A DNA stretch of 64,000 nucleotides, taken from a virus. Shown in pieces: positions 2,185-42,492 of this stretch. The notes under the pieces are model-generated. The model had not been told where the DNA came from. It did no database searches and saw only the letters and a list, made by a program, of their open reading frames with translations. How positions within the stretch are numbered: the first letter of the stretch is position 1; each line of letters opens with the position of its first letter. The position numbers and the translations under genes were made by a program. The stretch spans positions 1 to 64,000 of the IMG/VR virus record IMGVR_UViG_3300032893_000006. One strand, given 5' to 3'.

Positions 2185-2213
2185 TTGACATTGCATACTT
2201 GTTGGCTTTCAAT
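2185..2213 (+). promoter_or_regulatory. Candidate sigma70-type promoter
   Basis: TTGACA (2185-2190), 17-nt spacer, TTCAAT (weak -10). Confidence 0.35.
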
Positions 2214-2214
2214 G

Positions 2215-2310
2215 GACTTGGCGTGTCCAGCGCCGGTTCGCTTCTTCCCTCCGAGGGTAAGCGACGATAAGGCCCGATCCACTCCCCCGGTGATCGGGCC
2301 TTTGATTTTT
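2215..2310 (+). ncRNA. Candidate small RNA containing the complement of early-gene ribosome-binding sites
   Basis: Short unit between a promoter-like element and a terminator; contains CCCTCCGAGGG at 2247-2257. Confidence 0.35.
2270..2310 (+). terminator. Rho-independent terminator
   Basis: AGGCCCGATC (2270-2279) pairs with GATCGGGCCT (2292-2301), followed by TTGATTTTT. Confidence 0.7.
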
Positions 2311-11222: not shown

Positions 11223-11243
11223 CAAGACACGGAGGGAAGAAAT

Positions 11244-13058
11244 ATGGCAGGTTTGAAGAAGGGGCCACGGGTCGTACTTGCGGCCTTGGCTGTAGTTGGA
11301 GTTATCTTTGGTCTCCGCACTGCAATGCAGAAGGGACTGATCCCTACACCGGGAATTATGAAGTCATTGGTTGCGGCGCGGGTGACGTTGCCGCCACAGC
11401 AAGATGCAGAAGTTGCGAATGTCGTGGCTCTTCCGTATCCATCGTCAAGTCCTGCGAGCGTCTCCGCAAACCACATTCAGTTCGATGTGTGGGAGTGGAA
11501 TGCTATGTTCTCGCTGATCTACGCAAACGGCGGCGCGAACACAACCAAGGGCTCTTTGATGGAGAAGAACAACGTCAATCTCACTCTGCATCGCGAAGAC
11601 TCAAACGAGCAGATGAAGGCCGATCTGCTCGCCTGCGCAAAGCAACTTCACGATGGTGCGCAAAATTGTACGACTGGAGCCGAAGCGATTGTTGTTATGG
11701 GCGACAGCGGTGGGCAGTGGCTTGCCGATCTTAATCCGCAGTTAAAGAAGCTCGACAAGTCAGGTGCGTATGACGCTGAGATTATCGGTGCGGTAGGCCG
11801 GTCGAACGGCGAAGATGCCCTGCTTGGCCCTGCTGAGTGGAAGACCAATCCACAGAGCATGAGGGGCAAGACCGTCGTCGGTGTGATTCGCGATGGCGAC
11901 TGGAACATCGCGCTCAATTACGAGGGCTCGAACGGGCTCAAGAACAATCCCGATTTGAAGACCTACGATCCGGATGCGGTCAACTGGATAGCCGCTCCTG
12001 ACGAAGACTACATCAAGGCCGTAACCGAGGTTTATGTTCCAAACCGCTGCGAAGAGCGGCAGGTGGTCAAAGACGGCAAGATGACCGGGGAGACAAAGAA
12101 CGTATGCCCGGACGGAGTAGTTACATGGACTCCGGGAGACGAGCAGGCCGTTCATGGACGTCCGGGAACAACAAAGATCATCTCGTCGCACGAATACGCG
12201 TCGCAGATGCCAGCAGTAATCCTCGGCATCAAGAAGTTTTTCAATGACAATCGCGACGAGATCAACGGCCTGCTTGCTGCGTCGTTTCAGGCTGCGGATC
12301 AGGTGAAAGCATTCGATGCCGTCCGTCAGGCTGCAGGCAAGATGTCGGCACAGCTTTACAACGACCAGACAGGCGACTACTGGTATCGCTATTACAAAGG
12401 CTTCACCGATCCGACAGGCGTGCCATTGGGTGGTTCTGCCGTTTTCAATCTCCAAGACGATATCAATTATTTCGGCCTAGACGGTCAGCATAACAACAAC
12501 ATGCGTGCGACCTATGAGACGTTTGGGAAGATCGCAACCATGAATTACCCGGCGCTTTTCAAGGACAACCCCATCCCGCCATATCGCGAAGCCGTCGATC
12601 CGTCATTTATCAGTGGAGCACAAGCGCTGTTAAGTTCGAGCGATGCAGGGGGAGCGAGCGCTGAGACAGTTGATTATTCTGCACAGGCTCAAAGCGGCGA
12701 GGTTCGCGGCCATAAGGCCGTTTACATCAACTTTGCGACCGGCTCAGACGTACCTCTGCCCGACAGCATTCCTGCCTTGAACGAACTAAAGGACGCGCTG
12801 GCAATCAATTCACAGCTTGCCATTAAACTCGATGGTTATACCGACAACACGGGATCGGATACAGTGAACGTACCGCTCAGCAAGGCGCGTGCCGAGGCAG
12901 TGAAGCACTTTTTCCAGCAAGCTGCGCCGATGAGCTTCCCTGACTCGCGGTTTGTTTCTGTTGACGGTCACGGCTCCGCCGATCCGATTGCGGCCAATAC
13001 TTCAGCAAGCGGTAAGGCTCTCAACCGGCGTGTGGAGATCACGCAAATCGGGCAATAA
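11244..13058 (+). CDS. ABC-type substrate-binding protein fused to a C-terminal OmpA-like peptidoglycan-binding domain
   Basis: N-terminal signal/TM; C-terminal INFATGS, DGYTDNTG, N..LS..RA.AV, GHG...P...N...NRRVEI. Confidence 0.85.
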   Translation: MAGLKKGPRVVLAALAVVGVIFGLRTAMQKGLIPTPGIMKSLVAARVTLPPQQDAEVANVVALPYPSSSPASVSANHIQFDVWEWNAMFSLIYANGGANTTKGSLMEKNNVNLTLHREDSNEQMKADLLACAKQLHDGAQNCTTGAEAIVVMGDSGGQWLADLNPQLKKLDKSGAYDAEIIGAVGRSNGEDALLGPAEWKTNPQSMRGKTVVGVIRDGDWNIALNYEGSNGLKNNPDLKTYDPDAVNWIAAPDEDYIKAVTEVYVPNRCEERQVVKDGKMTGETKNVCPDGVVTWTPGDEQAVHGRPGTTKIISSHEYASQMPAVILGIKKFFNDNRDEINGLLAASFQAADQVKAFDAVRQAAGKMSAQLYNDQTGDYWYRYYKGFTDPTGVPLGGSAVFNLQDDINYFGLDGQHNNNMRATYETFGKIATMNYPALFKDNPIPPYREAVDPSFISGAQALLSSSDAGGASAETVDYSAQAQSGEVRGHKAVYINFATGSDVPLPDSIPALNELKDALAINSQLAIKLDGYTDNTGSDTVNVPLSKARAEAVKHFFQQAAPMSFPDSRFVSVDGHGSADPIAANTSASGKALNRRVEITQIGQ

Positions 13059-25753: not shown

Positions 25754-26452
25754 CTAAGTTGTGCCTGAGTTCATTTCGTTTTGGGACTGTTTTTGACGTG
25801 CAATGATCTTCGCGACTGTGCTGCGATGCCATGGCCCTCCTGAGCGCGTTTTAAGGCTCGTGGAATTCATCTGAGCAGCGATCTGTTGGCAGGTCATTCC
25901 CGATTGGAATTTGAGGCTGGTAATGAGGCTGAGCGCAACCTCTTCTCCCTCCTTTTCGCCGAACGCGCGACGGCCTTCGCACTTTCCATTCTTCCGGCGC
26001 AGGCGCTCCCGGGCTCCCCGGAGTTTGAGGACGGTTACGCAGCGATCAAATTCAGCGATTGCCGCGAGTATTTGCCGAATGAGCTTGGCGGTGGGGTTTA
26101 GGTCGTCACCTGCGGTAAGGTCTACGCCACCGGACGCCGCCACAACTCGAACGCCGATTTTTTGGAATTCTCGGACGATGACTTCGGCGACGATCATGTC
26201 GCGCGCTAGGCGGTCGCTCGACTCGACAATAACGAGCCCAATGCCGTTGGCTTGAATAAACTGCATACAAGCCGACAGCCCCTCCCGGTTTTCCAATTCC
26301 ATTTTTCCAGTAACGCCTTCATCGCGAAATTCAGAAACCACTTCGACGTCGTTGTTGGAGGCATATTTGATTATGACTTCTCGTTGTCTGTCCCACGTAT
26401 CGCCTAAAATCTGGCCATCGCCGGAGCATCGCATGTAGGTTGCAGCCTTCAT
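25754..26452 (-). CDS. Serine recombinase (resolvase-type with a short recombinase domain)
   Basis: YMRCS...Q, ESSDRLARD, C-terminal IA..MN...T..G..W..STV.KI. Confidence 0.85.
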   Translation of the reverse strand: MKAATYMRCSGDGQILGDTWDRQREVIIKYASNNDVEVVSEFRDEGVTGKMELENREGLSACMQFIQANGIGLVIVESSDRLARDMIVAEVIVREFQKIGVRVVAASGGVDLTAGDDLNPTAKLIRQILAAIAEFDRCVTVLKLRGARERLRRKNGKCEGRRAFGEKEGEEVALSLITSLKFQSGMTCQQIAAQMNSTSLKTRSGGPWHRSTVAKIIARQKQSQNEMNSGTT

Positions 26453-26895
26453 AGTTTGTTCCTCCTTTCACGAGCTTGCCTTGCTGTTGCGACACTATGA
26501 CAATGTGGAGAGCAGTACATCGCGCGCTGCATAATAGAGTTAAATTCCTTCTCACAAATAGCGCATGAATGGTGATACCGCTTGCGGCGTGGATGCCGGT
26601 TTCTTGCCTGCTCTTTCGGCGTTGCCCACCGGCAATTTCCCGGTTCGTAGTTGCCGTCTTTGTTTGGATAGCGGTCTATCGATGTTCCGGATGGAGGCTC
26701 CCCCATGTCGGCGAGAAAGTTTTCGAACCGATGCCATCGGCTGCAAACGCGAATGCCCTTCCCTCCCCAGTCCTCAAATCGAGTACAGGACGGCGTATAG
26801 CAACGCGCCAGCATCATTTGCCAGATGCGATAAATGCGAGTTGGCTTACCCCCTCGTTTATGGCCATGAATCAATCTGCCATTGGGGTTGCTCAT
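26449..26895 (-). CDS. HNH-type endonuclease
   Basis: YRIW..M.ARC, SIDR...DGNYEPGNCRWAT. Confidence 0.8.
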   Translation of the reverse strand: MSNPNGRLIHGHKRGGKPTRIYRIWQMMLARCYTPSCTRFEDWGGKGIRVCSRWHRFENFLADMGEPPSGTSIDRYPNKDGNYEPGNCRWATPKEQARNRHPRRKRYHHSCAICEKEFNSIMQRAMYCSPHCHSVATARQARERRNKL

Positions 26896-27194
26896 CGCTT
26901 CCCTCCGAGTATTCGCTTCGATGTTTCTTCGAACGCCGCGTCGGTCGGCTCTGGAATCCACCCCATTCTGTGCAGGATCGTCAACTGCTCATCTCGCGCG
27001 CCACGGCAAAGATGTGTCTGCTTTTTGCCGTGTAGAGCCGGATGGTGGCAAATCTGCGATGCCTGCAAAACGGTTCTGCTCATCACCCGGTTGCGCAGTT
27101 CGATGTCGCCGCCGTCGCGAAATGGGCAGCTTGCGCACTTCTCCGCCATCACTGGCCAGTTCTTAATGTTCTTCGGCATCGCGTACTTTCGCAT
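26892..27194 (-). CDS. Cys/His-rich hypothetical protein
   Basis: CASCPF, ICH, LCRG. Confidence 0.6.
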   Translation of the reverse strand: MRKYAMPKNIKNWPVMAEKCASCPFRDGGDIELRNRVMSRTVLQASQICHHPALHGKKQTHLCRGARDEQLTILHRMGWIPEPTDAAFEETSKRILGGKR

Positions 27195-29586: not shown

Positions 29587-30396
29587 CTACTTGAGGTTGT
29601 CAACGAAGTTTGAGAGCTTCAGGAGCTTGATCCGGTTGACGTCGATGTAGACAAACTCTTCGTCAGTTAGCGCCTTCATCTCCACATCTTTCAGGAGCGA
29701 GCGAACCAGAGAGAGGAGGTCCACGGTTTTCTTCGGCGGCGCTATCGTTCGCTTGACTGTCTTGCGTCCCTTGGAACGCGCTTCCTCGACACGCTGCTTC
29801 AGGACGAGACTTGCTCCGCTGCCTGACTTCCGAATCTCGGACAAAGCGAGCGATGGCGTCACGGCCTGCTCAGAGAGCAGGAACTTGATATCGTCGGGAG
29901 CGTCGGATAACTCGATTGCCTCGGTAATGAAGCGAGCCTTGTATCCAGTCCTGACGGAGATTTCGTCGGGCGTCCATCCGTAGGCGGCGAATCTGCGGAA
30001 CGCGCCGCCTAATTCCCACTTGGAGAGCGGTTTGCCTGTGTTAGCGGTGATAGCCGTCAAAAGCCGGTCGGCTTCGTTGTTGCCGGGAACCTGAATGACA
30101 GGCACCCCCTTAATCTCGACTCCCTCCTTGATGAGTTCGCGGACAGCGCGTAGACGGCACTCACCGTCGACAAGAATTGCGGTTTTGGTCGCCGTATCAA
30201 AGCGCACCAGAAGGGGAACAAGGACACCGTTCGACTTGATGGAGTCCTTGAGTTCGTCGAGGTGCGCCCGGTTTTCTGGGAGCCGGTAGTTACGAGGGTT
30301 GAACTTGTCTTCCGTGACGATGACGGCAGGGTCGACGGTGAACATATCGCGTGCCCCGATCTTCAGATCACGAAGCCGGGTAATCTCATTTGCCAT
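29587..30396 (-). CDS. ParB N-terminal-domain protein
   Basis: EL..SI...GV.VPL, LVDGECRLRA, then an HTH-like segment. Confidence 0.8.
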   Translation of the reverse strand: MANEITRLRDLKIGARDMFTVDPAVIVTEDKFNPRNYRLPENRAHLDELKDSIKSNGVLVPLLVRFDTATKTAILVDGECRLRAVRELIKEGVEIKGVPVIQVPGNNEADRLLTAITANTGKPLSKWELGGAFRRFAAYGWTPDEISVRTGYKARFITEAIELSDAPDDIKFLLSEQAVTPSLALSEIRKSGSGASLVLKQRVEEARSKGRKTVKRTIAPPKKTVDLLSLVRSLLKDVEMKALTDEEFVYIDVNRIKLLKLSNFVDNLK

Positions 30397-33196: not shown

Positions 33197-33977
33197 TCAC
33201 TTTCCAGCGCCAAGCATGAAGCTCGCTCGGCTCTCAATTGCTTTGAGTACGTTTGCAGGATCACCGAAGAACGATTCGATTTTGTCGGATAATTTACAGA
33301 TCGACAGCATCGCTTCGTAGAAAAACTTTGCTGCTTCCTCGGTGTAGGGAATTTCCTGCAAGTGATCGAGTTCTCTTTCCGCAAACCCACCGATGAAGGA
33401 GTTCAGTTTATCCAGATAGTTGTCAGGTTCAGAATGACAGTTATCGCCTGCGCGCTCCCACACGATCTGATCTCCCGACTTGCGATGAGCCGTGACCTTG
33501 ACATAAGCCCGTGCCATCAAGCCCACCGAATATGTGTGATCGTCACTTGGCCAGCGGTAGTCGTGGATGCCGTGCCACGATCCTTTGTTTTCGGAGTAGT
33601 TCTTGTCGTAGCCGCCATTCGGGACAATCTTTCCATCTGCTGTCTTCCAGTAATGGATATTGGCACGTGTTGTGTAGAGAATGACTGTCTCGCGTGTGAC
33701 CTCGCAGTTCACATAATCCTGTGCGGCGATGCGAAGAAACTCGATGCCCTCCGCTTTGGTTTTTGTCATGACGTAGTAATTCACGCGCATCTTGCCGACA
33801 GAGATATCGCGTTTCTTGGCAGCGTTCGCTTTCGCTGTTAGCTCAAGCTCTTCCGGGATGGTGAAGGTGAACCACCCATCCTTATCGACACTGATCTCAG
33901 TCCGAAAAGAGAATTGGGTCGCCGCCAGAGTAGTTCTCCGGTCGAACTTCGATCTTTTCCGTTCCCAGTGATGGCAT
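33197..33977 (-). CDS. Hypothetical protein, frameshifted at about 33905
   Basis: ATG 33977 overlaps the upstream stop; removing one base from the T4 run joins it to the 33197-33790 frame. Confidence 0.55.
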
Positions 33978-34387
33978 CAGGCCCCCAGTCTCTTCCGAAG
34001 TTTAGACCACTCTGCCCCAGTCAAAAGGTCGAGCGGATGGTTGTCAGGAGTCATCTCAGAGAGAAGGAACTGGATCGCGCTGGCATCCTTATAGTCGGGA
34101 CGCTCATGGAAGGCGCGATACTTTTCCTCGCGCTCGATACGCTCGCGATTCTTTTCTTCGTGCTCTCGAATCATTTCTGGCGTGGCGACGACAAAATGCG
34201 AGCGGCTGTACCCCTTGGTGCGTCCAGTGACCTTGTCGATCTGCGTAGTACCGACCCAGACACTTTTCGGAGTAACCTTTGTGATGGTGTGGATGACTCC
34301 AGACCATCGCGTTTCACCGGAAGCAATCGAGCGAATAATTGGGGCGATCTTATCGCCTGCCTTTACATCCATCAATGTCTTTTCCAT
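33977..34387 (-). CDS. Hypothetical protein
   Basis: 136-aa ORF, SD GGAGGTG. Confidence 0.6.
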   Translation of the reverse strand: MEKTLMDVKAGDKIAPIIRSIASGETRWSGVIHTITKVTPKSVWVGTTQIDKVTGRTKGYSRSHFVVATPEMIREHEEKNRERIEREEKYRAFHERPDYKDASAIQFLLSEMTPDNHPLDLLTGAEWSKLRKRLGA

Positions 34388-34651
34388 AACACCTCCGCGA
34401 TCTCCGATTGAGTTGCCCTCGAAACCGTGTAGCTTTTTTCAGGGAATGGCAACGGATCGGAGTCAAGGATCGTCACCGATCAGACGCACAGCGATACGTT
34501 ACCCAGTGCCCAGTGTCGATGGCGGCAAGAAGTTCAAGCGCCTCGGAGGAATCGCCCGATTCCTTGCCACCATCTACGCCGCCGCGATTTTCATGGCGGC
34601 AACTCAAGTTCTCCAATTGATCCCCCGATCAAGATAGAAAAGTTACTTGTT

Positions 34652-34681
34652 AGTCTGCGCTCAGAGGGAACGTCATGTCAA
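34652..34681 (-). promoter_or_regulatory. Promoter TTGACA-N18-CAGACT
   Basis: Same architecture as 7778-7807. Confidence 0.55.
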
Positions 34682-35662: not shown

Positions 35663-35896
35663 CTAGCGCCGCACGGCGCGCACGTCGCAGAGGCTAGTGC
35701 GTCCCGGCGCGAAGCGTACGCGCAGAATAGGTTCGAGCCACGGCATCACATCTTCAACCGTGACGTTGCCTGCTGTCCAGAATCCTTCCGACTCTTGGCC
35801 GTGCGCAATACGCACTTGCGTCCTCCCCATGGACGGCGAGTAGTAACAGGTGACGCGCGGTGCCTCTGGTGTTGTGTTGGTCTCGCTCATAGGCAC
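35663..35896 (-). CDS. Hypothetical protein
   Basis: 77-aa ORF, coupled to the upstream gene. Confidence 0.5.
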   Translation of the reverse strand: MPMSETNTTPEAPRVTCYYSPSMGRTQVRIAHGQESEGFWTAGNVTVEDVMPWLEPILRVRFAPGRTSLCDVRAVRR

Positions 35897-36516
35897 TCCC
35901 CGTCCTCGTCGAATTCGTATTCGTTCGCTATGATGGTTTCGTCGACTGCCTCGTCACTGGTTTGGTAGTGATACTCCTCTTCAAGACTTCTGTATATCCA
36001 ATCTGCAAAGCTGCGCATGGAGTCTTGGAGTTCATTGGATACAACGAGACTTAATTCGTCTCCCTCATCGTCGGTGGCTGTGACGCTCATCATCCCCGAG
36101 TGACTATAGCGGTTGTCGTTCTGGCTGATTATGCCGTTCATCGACTTGCCTTCGAGAAGACGCAGGCGGCATTGCAGCGCCATGAGCGAGTCTGCGATCT
36201 CGTGCAACGTCGAGTCGGTAGGAAATTCTTTACGAATAGCTTCTGCGCATCCGGGCTCAAACTTATAGCTGCCGGTAAAGCACGCGCCGTCGCCCTGTGA
36301 CCAGAATCCAGACCACCAGATGTTTACCTCGTGGCGCGTTTTTCCGTTCATGAGCTTCACCTCATGCGTGTTGAACGTGATTCCAAGAATTTTCGCCGCC
36401 GTCTCGAATGATTCGTACTCTGGTTCAAACTCAAAGCCTTCGAGCCACCATTCGCGCGCACGTTGCTTTGCTTCATCCGACAACTGTTCGAACTGTAAAA
36501 CGGTCTCTGTCTCCAT
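35887..36516 (-). CDS. Conserved acidic phage protein
   Basis: F.QLSDEAKQRA, SGF.SQGDGACF, IYR.LE.EY, NEYEFDEDG. Confidence 0.7.
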   Translation of the reverse strand: METETVLQFEQLSDEAKQRAREWWLEGFEFEPEYESFETAAKILGITFNTHEVKLMNGKTRHEVNIWWSGFWSQGDGACFTGSYKFEPGCAEAIRKEFPTDSTLHEIADSLMALQCRLRLLEGKSMNGIISQNDNRYSHSGMMSVTATDDEGDELSLVVSNELQDSMRSFADWIYRSLEEEYHYQTSDEAVDETIIANEYEFDEDGECL

Positions 36517-36562
36517 AGTGTGTCCCCTCCGAGGGATTGTCAGTTCATATCGTGTTGGTTGT

Positions 36563-39954: not shown

Positions 39955-40985
39955 CTATCGATTACCCCCCGAGATAAGTTGCCCCAATGGGCCAGCGTTG
40001 AGATTGTTGAAGGTTTGTGTATACGCAAGTTTGGGCGTGTGACGGATTGCATCACGAAAAGCCAAGACAGCGAATTCGCCGCGATCCTTCGTGAGCCGTG
40101 CAATGTACTTTCCAACATGCGCAAAGTTCTGTTCGTTGGCGCGTGCCGCAAGTCCAGTCGTCACCGCGTACAGTTCGTCGACCTTGGTTGGGATCGGTGA
40201 ATTAACTGGATCGGTAAGAATCTGATCGATGGTGACAAGACTTCCAGCGAGCTTGCGAAATGCAAGGTACTCGGTCGCTGCTGCGACTCCGACTGCGCCA
40301 GCGAAGGCGGCGGCTTCAATGTCGCGCGGCAGGTTCAACTGCTCAAGCTGTGCGACGCGCGCCCATGTGCGCGGTACCGGCGAGTTTACAAGGTCTGCCG
40401 ATGCTTCGAACTTTGAGAGCAGGTCTGGCCGGTAGCGAAGGAAGGCAATCAGAGTAACCGGGATGCCGGAATCAATCGCCCATCCTGACCAGTCGTCGAT
40501 GATTGCTTCGAGTTCGACGATAGCCGCGAACCGCGACTTGACGGGCTCAAGGATGCCAGTCACGCCAGCGCGATCTGTACGGCGGTTTGTTGCCGCGACG
40601 AACGTCACGCAATCGGGCAGCTTGTGACCGTTCACGCGACGCGCCAGCAGCAACTGCATAAAGCTGGCCTGCACTGCCGGTGGAGCTTGGCCAAGTCATC
40701 GAGAAACCACACGGTTGGCTTGGTGGCGTCGATTGCGTCGGCGAGTTCGCCGTACGGAAGAAAGGTTGCGCGCTTCGCGCTTTTCTCCGGCCACGGCAAG
40801 CCCTTTGCGTCGGTCGGGTCGGCGACGGCAGGATGCGAGATGATGAGTTCAGCTTTTGCCGCTTGCGTGGCTTGCAGCACGATATCTGTTTTGCCGATAC
40901 CGGGTGCGCCAGTGATGAGTAAGGGCAGGCGCGCGGGAATCATTGCCGCGAGCAGTTGAGTAAGTTGCGATGGACTGATTGCCAT
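39955..40985 (-). CDS. MoxR-like AAA+ ATPase, frameshifted at about 40691
   Basis: GAPGIGKT, WFLDD, then shifted frame QAPPAVQASFMQL, ATNR, SRF, PRTW. Confidence 0.85.
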
Positions 40986-41051
40986 GGTGTCCCCTCCGAG
41001 GGATGGTGTGTTGATGGTTGTGGTTGTGTCCAGATTCTGGACGGATGCATA

Positions 41052-41297
41052 TTACAGCGTGTCAATGTCGAAGTGAATGCGACCACGCAACACGCGTGCG
41101 CGTGTCTTGATGCGGTTGAGGTCGACAATCGCGCGGCTGTAGTTGCCGGTGATCTCGCGCCACTCGTCCTCGCTCATATCGTCTGTCTGGTTGCGGAAAT
41201 TTGCGCGTGCGGTTTCGAATGCGTGCTGCGCGTAGGATGCCTCGCCTTTCAGCGCGTGCAGTTCGCTAGCGCTTTGAATCAATCTGGTTATGCTCAT
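41052..41297 (-). CDS. Small early protein
   Basis: SD CTCGGAGGGG. Confidence 0.55.
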   Translation of the reverse strand: MSITRLIQSASELHALKGEASYAQHAFETARANFRNQTDDMSEDEWREITGNYSRAIVDLNRIKTRARVLRGRIHFDIDTL

Positions 41298-41332
41298 AAC
41301 CCCTCCGAGGGTTGGGTTGTGGTGCGTTGCGG

Positions 41333-41554: not shown

Positions 41555-41680
41555 TTACTGCTTATTCTTGCGCTCCATTGAATTGGGCAGAACAAACAGC
41601 TTGATGATGGCCAGACCTGCGAACGTCCCGGCCACGATGATTCCGATGTACGAGAAAGCGAAAAACACTTGGTTGTGCAT
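41555..41680 (-). CDS. Single-TM peptide
   Basis: SD CTCGGAGGG; hydrophobic core. Confidence 0.5.
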   Translation of the reverse strand: MHNQVFFAFSYIGIIVAGTFAGLAIIKLFVLPNSMERKNKQ

Positions 41681-41724
41681 GGTGATTCCCTCCGAGTAGT
41701 GGTGTGCGGTGCGTGGTGGGTGAC

Positions 41725-41859
41725 TTACTCGTCGTCCTCGATCTCGCTGGCGTCGCAGTTGTAATCCATGCCGCAATCGCGGCAGCGAAGGTGCGCCAGT
41801 TTACCGAGAATGCCGAGCAGCGTTGCGTACAGTGATCCACATGCTGGACAAGACATCAT
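41725..41859 (-). CDS. 44-aa Zn-ribbon peptide
   Basis: CPAC...CRDC; SD CTCGGAGGG; below the ORF-track cutoff. Confidence 0.6.
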   Translation of the reverse strand: MMSCPACGSLYATLLGILGKLAHLRCRDCGMDYNCDASEIEDDE

Positions 41860-41898
41860 GTTTTCCCTCCGAGTTGAAGTGTGGTCGTGCTGGTGCGG

Positions 41899-42123
41899 TT
41901 ATGCGCTGCGGTGCTCGTGGCGCGCGTAGACGTTGGCAGGTTCGCCTGTGAAAGTTGGAAGAGTTTGAAGGTCTGGGAAGCCAGCTTGCTGCGCTTCGAG
42001 GTTGACGATTTTCTGCGCCCTGTCAATGATCGTCATAAAATCCCGATGCGTTCTTGGGTCCATTTCTGATCGATCTGTTCTTATAGCGATGCGTGTCAGC
42101 TTGCTATACGCTTCGAGGTACAT
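41899..42123 (-). CDS. Small early protein
   Basis: SD TCGGAGGG. Confidence 0.5.
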   Translation of the reverse strand: MYLEAYSKLTRIAIRTDRSEMDPRTHRDFMTIIDRAQKIVNLEAQQAGFPDLQTLPTFTGEPANVYARHEHRSA

Positions 42124-42272
42124 TGCGATTCCCTCCGATGCTCCATTAGTAGTTGCTCAGGCGCGCCGCGTGAAGGCTGGAGTTTTGCGCCCGGAGAATG
42201 CAGCGATGCATTCCCATACTCATACTCAAAATGCACTCTCAGGTACTTGTGCCATTCACCATCGGTTAGCGC

Positions 42273-42442
42273 GCGTCTCGCGACGTTGCCCGTTTGCGTG
42301 TCTCACGACATGAGGTGATCCGTCCGCTTCGCTGGAATAGCGTGTGCAGGGGTTTCACAGGTTTCAGCGTTGCCCGTGTTCGCTCTGAGTTTTCAATGAC
42401 CTTGAGTTGATTCCCCCTGAGGGGTTTGGGTGTCTCACGACA
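42273..42442. promoter_or_regulatory. Three palindromic operator-like sites
   Basis: GTGTCTCACGACA at 42298-42310 and 42430-42442; variant GCGTCTCGCGACG at 42273-42285. Confidence 0.5.
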
Positions 42443-42462: not shown

Positions 42463-42492
42463 ACTCTACAGAAGATACTCTGCGCCTGTCAA
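42463..42492 (-). promoter_or_regulatory. Leftward promoter for the early block
   Basis: TTGACA-N18-TAGAGT at the divergence point. Confidence 0.6.

Follow-up and report, generated by a model that had tools for sequence, protein, structure and literature searches.

A candidate trans-acting small RNA with an anti-Shine-Dalgarno loop that may recognise an extended ribosome-binding tag on its own phage's genes

We describe in a phage genome a predicted small RNA of about 90 nt whose hairpin tip, UUCUUCCCUCCGAGGGU, is perfectly complementary over 10-12 nt to eight translation start regions of the same phage, seven of them leftward and one on the + strand (11244). Comparison with related phages suggests that the tip and the tag shared by these start regions probably interact as RNAs. 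By analogy with known loop RNAs, we put at roughly 0.55 the probability that such pairing lowers translation of the tagged genes, that is, translational repression.

The predicted small RNA gene and its setting

The window, the whole stretch of DNA analysed, covers the first 64 kb of G000, a virus record of 134,337 bp that is rated complete. A search with the major capsid protein led to G006, an IMG/VR contig of 105 kb that is collinear with G000 (95 % capsid identity, 65-77 % nucleotide identity), and to the more distant relatives G007 and G008, while G012 (134 kb) was reached through a RecT alignment. As queries, RecT alone and a 209-aa target protein returned no relatives. With the phosphoesterase as bait about 170 loci were returned, none syntenic with this phage, the homologues lying in unrelated phages; the nearest of these loci (L011 and L012) have coding genes at the place expected for the small RNA unit. 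Exact-pattern scans for the unit over viral contigs and prokaryote genomes gave only G006 and chance matches in coding DNA, and the promoter pattern was absent from five more related contigs, all five being fragments. A hairpin at 29631 of G012, found by fuzzy search, was dropped as chance. The homologues of the unit are those of two related phage contigs, G006 and G012, which were aligned with that of G000 by segments; only these three genomes, with two tag types, carry it. Gene calls come from a crude home-made caller. The features of the unit are as follows.

2185..2190, +, −35 hexamer TTGACA of promoter P1, identical in the G006 and G012 units
2208..2213, +, −10-like hexamer TTCAAT (TCCAAT in G012), the 17-nt spacing kept in three genomes
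2220..2310, +, predicted small RNA, about 90 nt long, with its 5' end placed from the −10 and 3' end from the terminator
2220..2234, +, SL1, 5' hairpin GGCGU-GUCCA-GCGCC, arms GGCG(U/C) and GCGCCGG kept in G006 and G012
2238..2264, +, SL2, hairpin with the anti-Shine-Dalgarno tip, outer stem UCGCUU/AAGCGA, inner stem CCCU/AGGG
2242..2258, +, anti-Shine-Dalgarno core UUCUUCCCUCCGAGGGU, complement of the leader tags, upper part of SL2
2269..2310, +, intrinsic terminator, stem AAGGCCCGAUC / GAUCGGGCCUU and U-run, conserved in G006

A reading of this DNA from its letters alone (the sequence-only reading) had described a non-coding unit of about 95 nt running from a promoter-like element to a terminator. 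The sequence is as it described, and the predicted RNA folds as three hairpins, the last being the terminator (−42.5 kcal/mol; z = −3.1 against shuffled sequence). The terminator hairpin is G+C-rich and spans 2269-2302, the U-run then extending to 2310. By computation, a short unit is bounded by its own promoter and an intrinsic terminator, with an atypical −10: TTCAAT and TCCAAT are without the near-invariant A at position 2, which is why a consensus scan missed the element.

The pattern TTGACA-N17-TYCAAT followed by GGCG(Y)...GCGCCGG is common to G000, G006 and G012 and occurs once in each genome, although the 17-nt spacers are unrelated. SL2 is kept as a hairpin in G006 and G012 with wholly different stem sequences, UCGCUU/AAGCGA in G000, GCGCG../..UGCGC in G006 and GACGGGCCGGUC/GGCCGGCCUGUU in G012. 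The position downstream of RecT is conserved as well, the unit lying directly after RecT in G006 and 1.2 kb downstream of it in G012. In G000 the + strand neighbours are RecT and the phosphoesterase upstream and an HNH endonuclease, a replication initiator and the DnaB helicase downstream; the phosphoesterase gene is absent in G006, and the unit is therefore not the 3' UTR of that gene. We rejected a small protein gene because reading frames are not conserved: the ORFs of G000 and G006 are in different frames, no frame is common to the three units, and no ORF across the unit has a ribosome site. No Rfam family reached threshold for the unit, and no tRNA was found in the window. The second promoter-like element 3' of the terminator, with −10 elements TATGATTGC, TATCATTGC and AATGATTGC in the three genomes, is consistent with the unit not being a leader of the replication genes. 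The shared promoter, its spacing, SL1, the second promoter and the unconserved frames thus argue for an independent non-coding unit rather than a 3' UTR or leader. Judged by its sequence, 2185-2310 is very probably a genuine conserved small-RNA gene.

Lambdoid late promoters give rise to the PR'-tR' 6S RNA, a short terminated transcript under Q antitermination, and resemble the unit in having a promoter and a strong terminator within about 100-200 nt. Unlike PR'-tR', the unit separates recombination genes from replication genes and does not precede late genes, and a separate promoter-like element follows its terminator. No antiterminator alternative fold was seen in it. A lambda-type (Q-type) late leader would adjoin a Q-like gene and stand immediately 5' of a late (lysis or virion) operon; we ruled it out because of the gene neighbours, which are RecT, the phosphoesterase, the HNH endonuclease, the replication initiator and DnaB.

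Several observations concern the surrounding DNA. The interval 2311-2561 holds, besides the second promoter-like element, whose −10 is TATGAT (2391-2396), about 165 nt of non-coding leader that is conserved in G006 up to the start codon. This leader has hairpins with compensatory changes (CGGGGCC...GGCCCCG vs CGGGGCGG...CCGCCCCG) and a long-range CCGUUGA/UCAACGG stem, and has the appearance of a structured 5' UTR belonging to the replication operon. The HNH endonuclease ORF lies between the conserved leader and the replication initiator. The two genes adjoining the unit (2562-2852 and 1595-2170) are indels relative to G006. The N-terminus of the G000 phosphoesterase differs from all homologues and carries a 10-residue insertion.

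Complementarity to start regions of the phage's own genes

The motif CCCTCCGAGGG has four + strand copies in the whole 134,337-bp genome (2247, 36525, 40992 and 41301) and none on the − strand, where simple arithmetic gives about 0.06 copies of one 11-mer expected by chance. The count observed at up to 1 mismatch was reached in 0 of 100 shuffles. The three distant copies, which the sequence-only reading had given as full 11-mer complements just upstream of opposite-strand starts, indeed lie 3-8 nt before the ATG of − strand ORFs at 36516, 40985 and 41297. The copy at 2247 is the SL2 tip and, in the genome-wide count, the only + strand copy that is not a leader. A copy at genome position 81435, inside a coding frame, was set aside as chance. 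When the 5' flank of the tip is included, the complement ACCCTCGGAGGGAAGAAGC takes in a second leader type, CTCGGAGGGAA. The predicted targets are the following.

42129..42138, −, ribosome site UCGGAGGGAA, 10 nt, of the first ORF (41899-42123) after the leftward promoter
41863..41873, −, CUCGGAGGGAA, 11-nt match CTCGGAGGGAA, before ORF 41725-41859
41686..41696, −, CUCGGAGGGAA, 11-nt match CTCGGAGGGAA, before ORF 41555-41680
41301..41312, −, ACCCUCGGAGGG, before ORF 41052-41297, duplex −32.5 kcal/mol
40992..41002, −, CCCUCGGAGGG, before the AAA ATPase gene (40632-40985)
36525..36535, −, CCCUCGGAGGG, before ORF 35887-36516
26898..26909, −, CUCGGAGGGAAG, 12 nt, before ORF 26449-26892, net cofold −21.0 kcal/mol
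11230..11241, +, CGGAGGGAAGAA, 12 nt, before the OmpA-domain gene 11244-13058

This list modifies the earlier one in three respects. The sites at 41688, 41865 and 42131 stand, but their matches are longer than the 8-9 nt given for them, reaching 11, 11 and 10 nt with the 5' flank. All the sites named earlier are retained, but the set was incomplete, lacking the two 12-nt start regions at 26898-26909 (−) and 11230-11241 (+). A class of targets defined by the tag is upheld, but its description as leftward is not, since one target in G000 is on the + strand. The tagged genes are mostly small ORFs of unknown function, together with the AAA ATPase and the OmpA-domain protein. Behind the leftward promoter at 42492, five of the first six ORFs carry the tag.

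To ask how specific the tip is, we relied on three measures. Counts of 9-mer complements along the unit peak only at the SL2 tip (an 8-mer profile was also run). Cofolding the whole RNA with 182 start regions placed tagged leftward genes at five of the six best net energies; these five lie between −14 and −16 kcal/mol against a mean of −5.6 (sd 3.4; z about −3), the best in this set being the target at 41686..41696 (−16.0 kcal/mol). Finally, we ranked all CTCC-containing 25-mers of each genome that are not antisense to a ribosome site. The G000 tip is the unique best of 627, with 7 start regions against 3 for the next best, while the G006 tip is tied for the top of 588 and the G012 tip is the unique top of 908.

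Other sites in the genome resemble these elements. On the − strand, 34541-34555 holds AUUCCUCCGAGG in the 5' leader (about 250 nt) that separates gene 33977-34387 from a promoter at 34681. A possible partner in cis is the UCGGAG that immediately precedes the ribosome site of the same gene. This complement has no counterpart in the leftward arm of G006, and for that reason we did not count it as a second trans-acting RNA. At 42380-42440 (−), the long leader behind the leftward promoter has a CCCCUCAGGGGGAA hairpin that resembles the CCCUCGGAGGGG leaders, with no start codon behind it. Copies of CGGAGGG at genome positions 111737, 112808 and 128094 are the T-arm/acceptor ends of + strand tRNA genes, not ribosome sites. 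The AAA ATPase is encoded at 39955-40985 (−) by two ORFs of 117 aa and 234 aa that overlap in different frames, where G006 has one 344-aa gene; a frameshift, programmed slippage or an error of sequencing may account for the split.

Change of tip and tag among related genomes

The sequence-only reading had proposed a trans-acting RNA whose extended anti-Shine-Dalgarno loop is aimed at a class of the phage's own genes, with co-variation in related phages as a check. The co-variation supports the proposal: promoter and architecture are kept, and the loop follows the ribosome-site tag of each genome. In G000 and G006 a (C)UCGGAGG(G/A)AA tag faces a UUCUUYCCUCCGAGGG tip, and in the third genome, G012, the tag is CCACCGAGGAGA and the unit tip UCUCUCCUCGGUGG. 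The G012 tag takes the form (CCA)CCGAGGAG(A) at about ten genes, and that of G007 and G008 is (CA)ACCGGGAGG. Between G000 and G006 the tip is identical at 16 of 17 bases while the SL2 stem has been rebuilt. The table of tips against start-region sets is clearly diagonal. Counting start regions with a Watson-Crick match of at least 10 nt, the G000 tip finds 7 in G000, 2 in G006 and 0 in G012, the G006 tip finds 5 in G006, and the G012 tip finds 5 in G012 and 0 elsewhere.

UC is the commonest dinucleotide before GGAGG in G000 (9/42, p = 1e-3) and G006 (10/38, p = 8.5e-5), and it is found there in 0 of 30 cases in G012 and 1 of 38 in G008. The conserved 16S rRNA 3' tail would favour AA or an A-rich extension at this place, and pairing with 16S therefore does not explain UC, ACC or CCA extensions 5' of the core.

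The ATPase gene is the one well-conserved orthologous target. Its leader reads GGAGGG in G000 and GGAGGA in G006 (UCGGAGGAAA), and the tip base facing the change is C in G000 and U in G006. This single-base co-variation is partial because G006 keeps both the GGAGGG and the GGAGGA tags. Tags are rarely conserved at orthologous genes; the G006 orthologue of 41052-41297, for example, is without one. In G006 and G012 the tip lies inside a stable 12-bp hairpin with a 4-nt loop, so that pairing must open the hairpin or compete with it; the net cofold energies for G006, −5 to −13 kcal/mol, are modest. Taken together, these comparisons describe a seed that is complementary to targets elsewhere in the genome (8 start regions) and is kept by co-variation (G000/G006 vs G012).

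A second conserved C-rich-loop hairpin, GUCU-UCUCCCGG-AGAC, was seen at L172:5315-5385 (genome 69315-69385, +), after a late gene and right before an intrinsic terminator, with homologues in G006, G007 and G008. Its loop in G007 and G008, CCUCCCGGUUGC, is the 11-12 nt complement of the dominant tag CAACCGGGAGG and is the top anti-start-region sequence in G007; in G006 it is a second tag, UCCGGGAGAAGACA, that the hairpin matches, over as many as 14 nt. From these matches the hairpin is possibly a second anti-tag RNA. Comparable to the G000 leader hairpin at 42380-42440, which has no start codon behind it, is an orphan tag copy (CCGGGAGGGGG) of G008, at 126535 in the divergent control region of that genome.

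Proposed action, alternative explanations and meaning

In the mechanism that we propose, the RNA gene would stand alone as a promoter, a 5' hairpin, a hairpin with the anti-Shine-Dalgarno tip and an intrinsic terminator, some 90 nt in all. The tip and its 5' flank, UUCUUCCCUCCGAGGGU, would pair over 10-13 nt with the private extended ribosome-binding tag (CC)CUCGGAGGGAA, and the eight phage genes that bear this tag would hence form the target set. Pairing would mask the Shine-Dalgarno sequence, so that the 30S subunit would be kept from binding and translation of the whole tagged set would drop as the RNA accumulates. The targets would presumably be early genes that the RNA silences, as the sequence-only reading had it. 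What the sequences show is the unit, its conservation, its complementarity and the joint change of tip and tag; that the unit is transcribed, that its product meets the messages as a duplex in the cell and that the outcome is repression we infer. Repression as the outcome is taken from the analogy with C-rich-loop RNAs that occlude Shine-Dalgarno sites (PMC2790875, PMC6486639, PMC4615179) and with c4 of P1 (PMC12197685).

Because tip and tag changed together in two relatives, we favour RNA pairing with messages over a palindromic protein site. It is conceivable that the pairing is real and its outcome something other than plain repression: a shield against a GGAG-cutting nuclease (cf. T4 RegB), message processing, or the opening of the self-hairpin of the CCCUCGGAGGG leader. 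Complementarity and co-variation would fit equally, and three CCCUCGGAGGG leaders can self-fold as CCCU/AGGG. The duplex, however, covers the Shine-Dalgarno core, a geometry that blocks 30S binding in each case described (PMC2790875, PMC6486639), and duplexes of 10-13 bp are short for RNase III; we consider such outcomes unlikely. Alternatively, a sequence-specific DNA- or RNA-binding protein that co-evolves with its sites may read the motif, the unit being an operator or decoy. Co-variation alone does not distinguish an RNA from a protein partner, the G000 motif is nearly palindromic (CCCTC-C-GAGGG) and its four 11-mer copies share DNA orientation, and the sequence-only reading had offered a palindromic protein-binding site as its alternative. 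That site does not fit the relatives, where neither the G006 tag (UCGGAGGAAA) nor the G012 tag (CCACCGAGGAGA) is a palindrome and the DNA orientation of the unit's motif relative to the targets is not conserved. It is the same in G000 and opposite in G012, since in G012 the unit and most targets share a strand. What stays constant is complementarity to the mRNA sense only, taken relative to the direction in which the unit itself is transcribed. With their GGAGG and their distance of 3-8 nt from the start codon, the sites stand where an RNA-level signal belongs, and an RNA-binding protein would meet in the unit the complement and not a copy of the leader sequence. A protein reader thus appears improbable to us.

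The unit could also be a mere terminator or insulator between the recombination and replication operons, with a functionless tip match, for instance an inverted copy of an intergenic cassette. Its terminator would end the RecT operon too, the tagged ribosome sites do resemble a repeated cassette before unrelated genes, and the G-rich 3' arm of any hairpin implies a C-rich 5' arm. An insulator would not, however, lead one to expect that three genomes with unrelated spacers keep both promoter hexamers at a fixed distance, nor that 16 of 17 tip bases are common to G000 and G006 despite diverged stems. In the G000 fold the conserved UUCUU flank is unpaired but complementary to AAGAA after some tags, and in two independent tag lineages no anti-start-region sequence of the genome ranks above the tip. 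We give this explanation very little weight, and translational repression by RNA pairing remains the reading that we prefer.

Shut-off of a phage's own messages at their ribosome-binding sites is familiar from T4, where RegA is a translational repressor and the RegB endoribonuclease cuts GGAG in early Shine-Dalgarno sites. The likeness lies in a set of own early messages being shut off through these sites; the T4 effectors are proteins, whereas the effector proposed here is an RNA, selective by pairing with an extended tag. In bacteria, trans-acting RNAs with C-rich loops include RsaE and RNAIII of S. aureus with UCCC motif loops (PMC2790875), the actinobacterial 6C RNA with a C-rich anti-Shine-Dalgarno loop (PMC6486639) and the alphaproteobacterial cuckoo/CcsR/ar14 RNAs with CCUCCUCCC loops (PMC4615179). 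Like the phage unit, these are short RNAs with their own promoter and terminator, present a C-rich hairpin tip to the G-rich ribosome sites of several mRNAs, and keep the loop while the stems vary. Unlike them, the unit is phage-encoded and aimed at the phage's own genes, has one anti-Shine-Dalgarno hairpin instead of two to four, and changes its seed together with the tag from phage to phage. Its seed also extends past the Shine-Dalgarno core into a lineage-specific tag and would therefore select a private gene set.

At a relaxed threshold Rfam gave only weak matches to the unit, three of them to C-rich-loop families and all far below the cut-offs. The unit does not belong to 6C (RF01066; 19.1 bits vs 47, E = 4.2), having one C-rich hairpin where 6C has two. 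Nor does it belong to cuckoo/ar14 (RF02344; PMC4615179), which is recognised by two to four hairpins each showing CCUCCUCCC and a score at threshold; the unit scores 16.6 bits vs 58.8, with a single hairpin and a different motif. The betaproteobacteria toxic small RNA (RF02278) is likewise no match (14.2 bits vs 50). According to a review of phage small RNAs, the c4 antisense RNA of P1 and P7 has loops that pair around the ribosome-binding site of a phage mRNA and block translation (PMC12197685). As there described, c4 resembles the unit as a phage-encoded RNA with a loop pairing at a phage ribosome-binding site, but it acts on one transcript of its own operon (icd-ant) in temperate-phage immunity, whereas the unit has at least eight dispersed targets that share a tag. 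In the literature searched, including that review as searched by keyword, we found no phage RNA controlling a tagged set of the phage's own genes (PMC12197685); for the most part, the phage small RNAs covered in the review target either one phage message or genes of the host (PMC12197685). The mechanism class, an anti-Shine-Dalgarno loop RNA, is already known in bacteria.

The timing of phage gene expression is usually ascribed to promoters, sigma factors, antiterminators and a few protein repressors. The present case would be an RNA regulon in a lytic-type phage genome. Its members would be marked by an extension of the ribosome-binding site, and this tag changes in step with the RNA between relatives. 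If true, it would provide a simple and portable post-transcriptional off-switch for a chosen gene set, and it would explain oddly uniform phage ribosome sites that are unaccounted for by 16S pairing. The natural variants of tip and tag would then serve as ready-made compensatory mutants. More speculatively, and with doubt on our part, each lineage may possess a private system of translation addressing. It would consist of its own extended tag (CUCGGAGGGAA, CCACCGAGGAGA or CAACCGGGAGG) and of anti-tag hairpin RNAs to match it, two or more of them in each genome (the unit and the hairpin before the late-operon terminator), with tag and anti-tag evolving as lock and key and temporal classes of messages switched by RNA. 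If repression of the tagged set is true, finding the anti-tag hairpin would become a rule that predicts temporal gene classes in uncultured phages.
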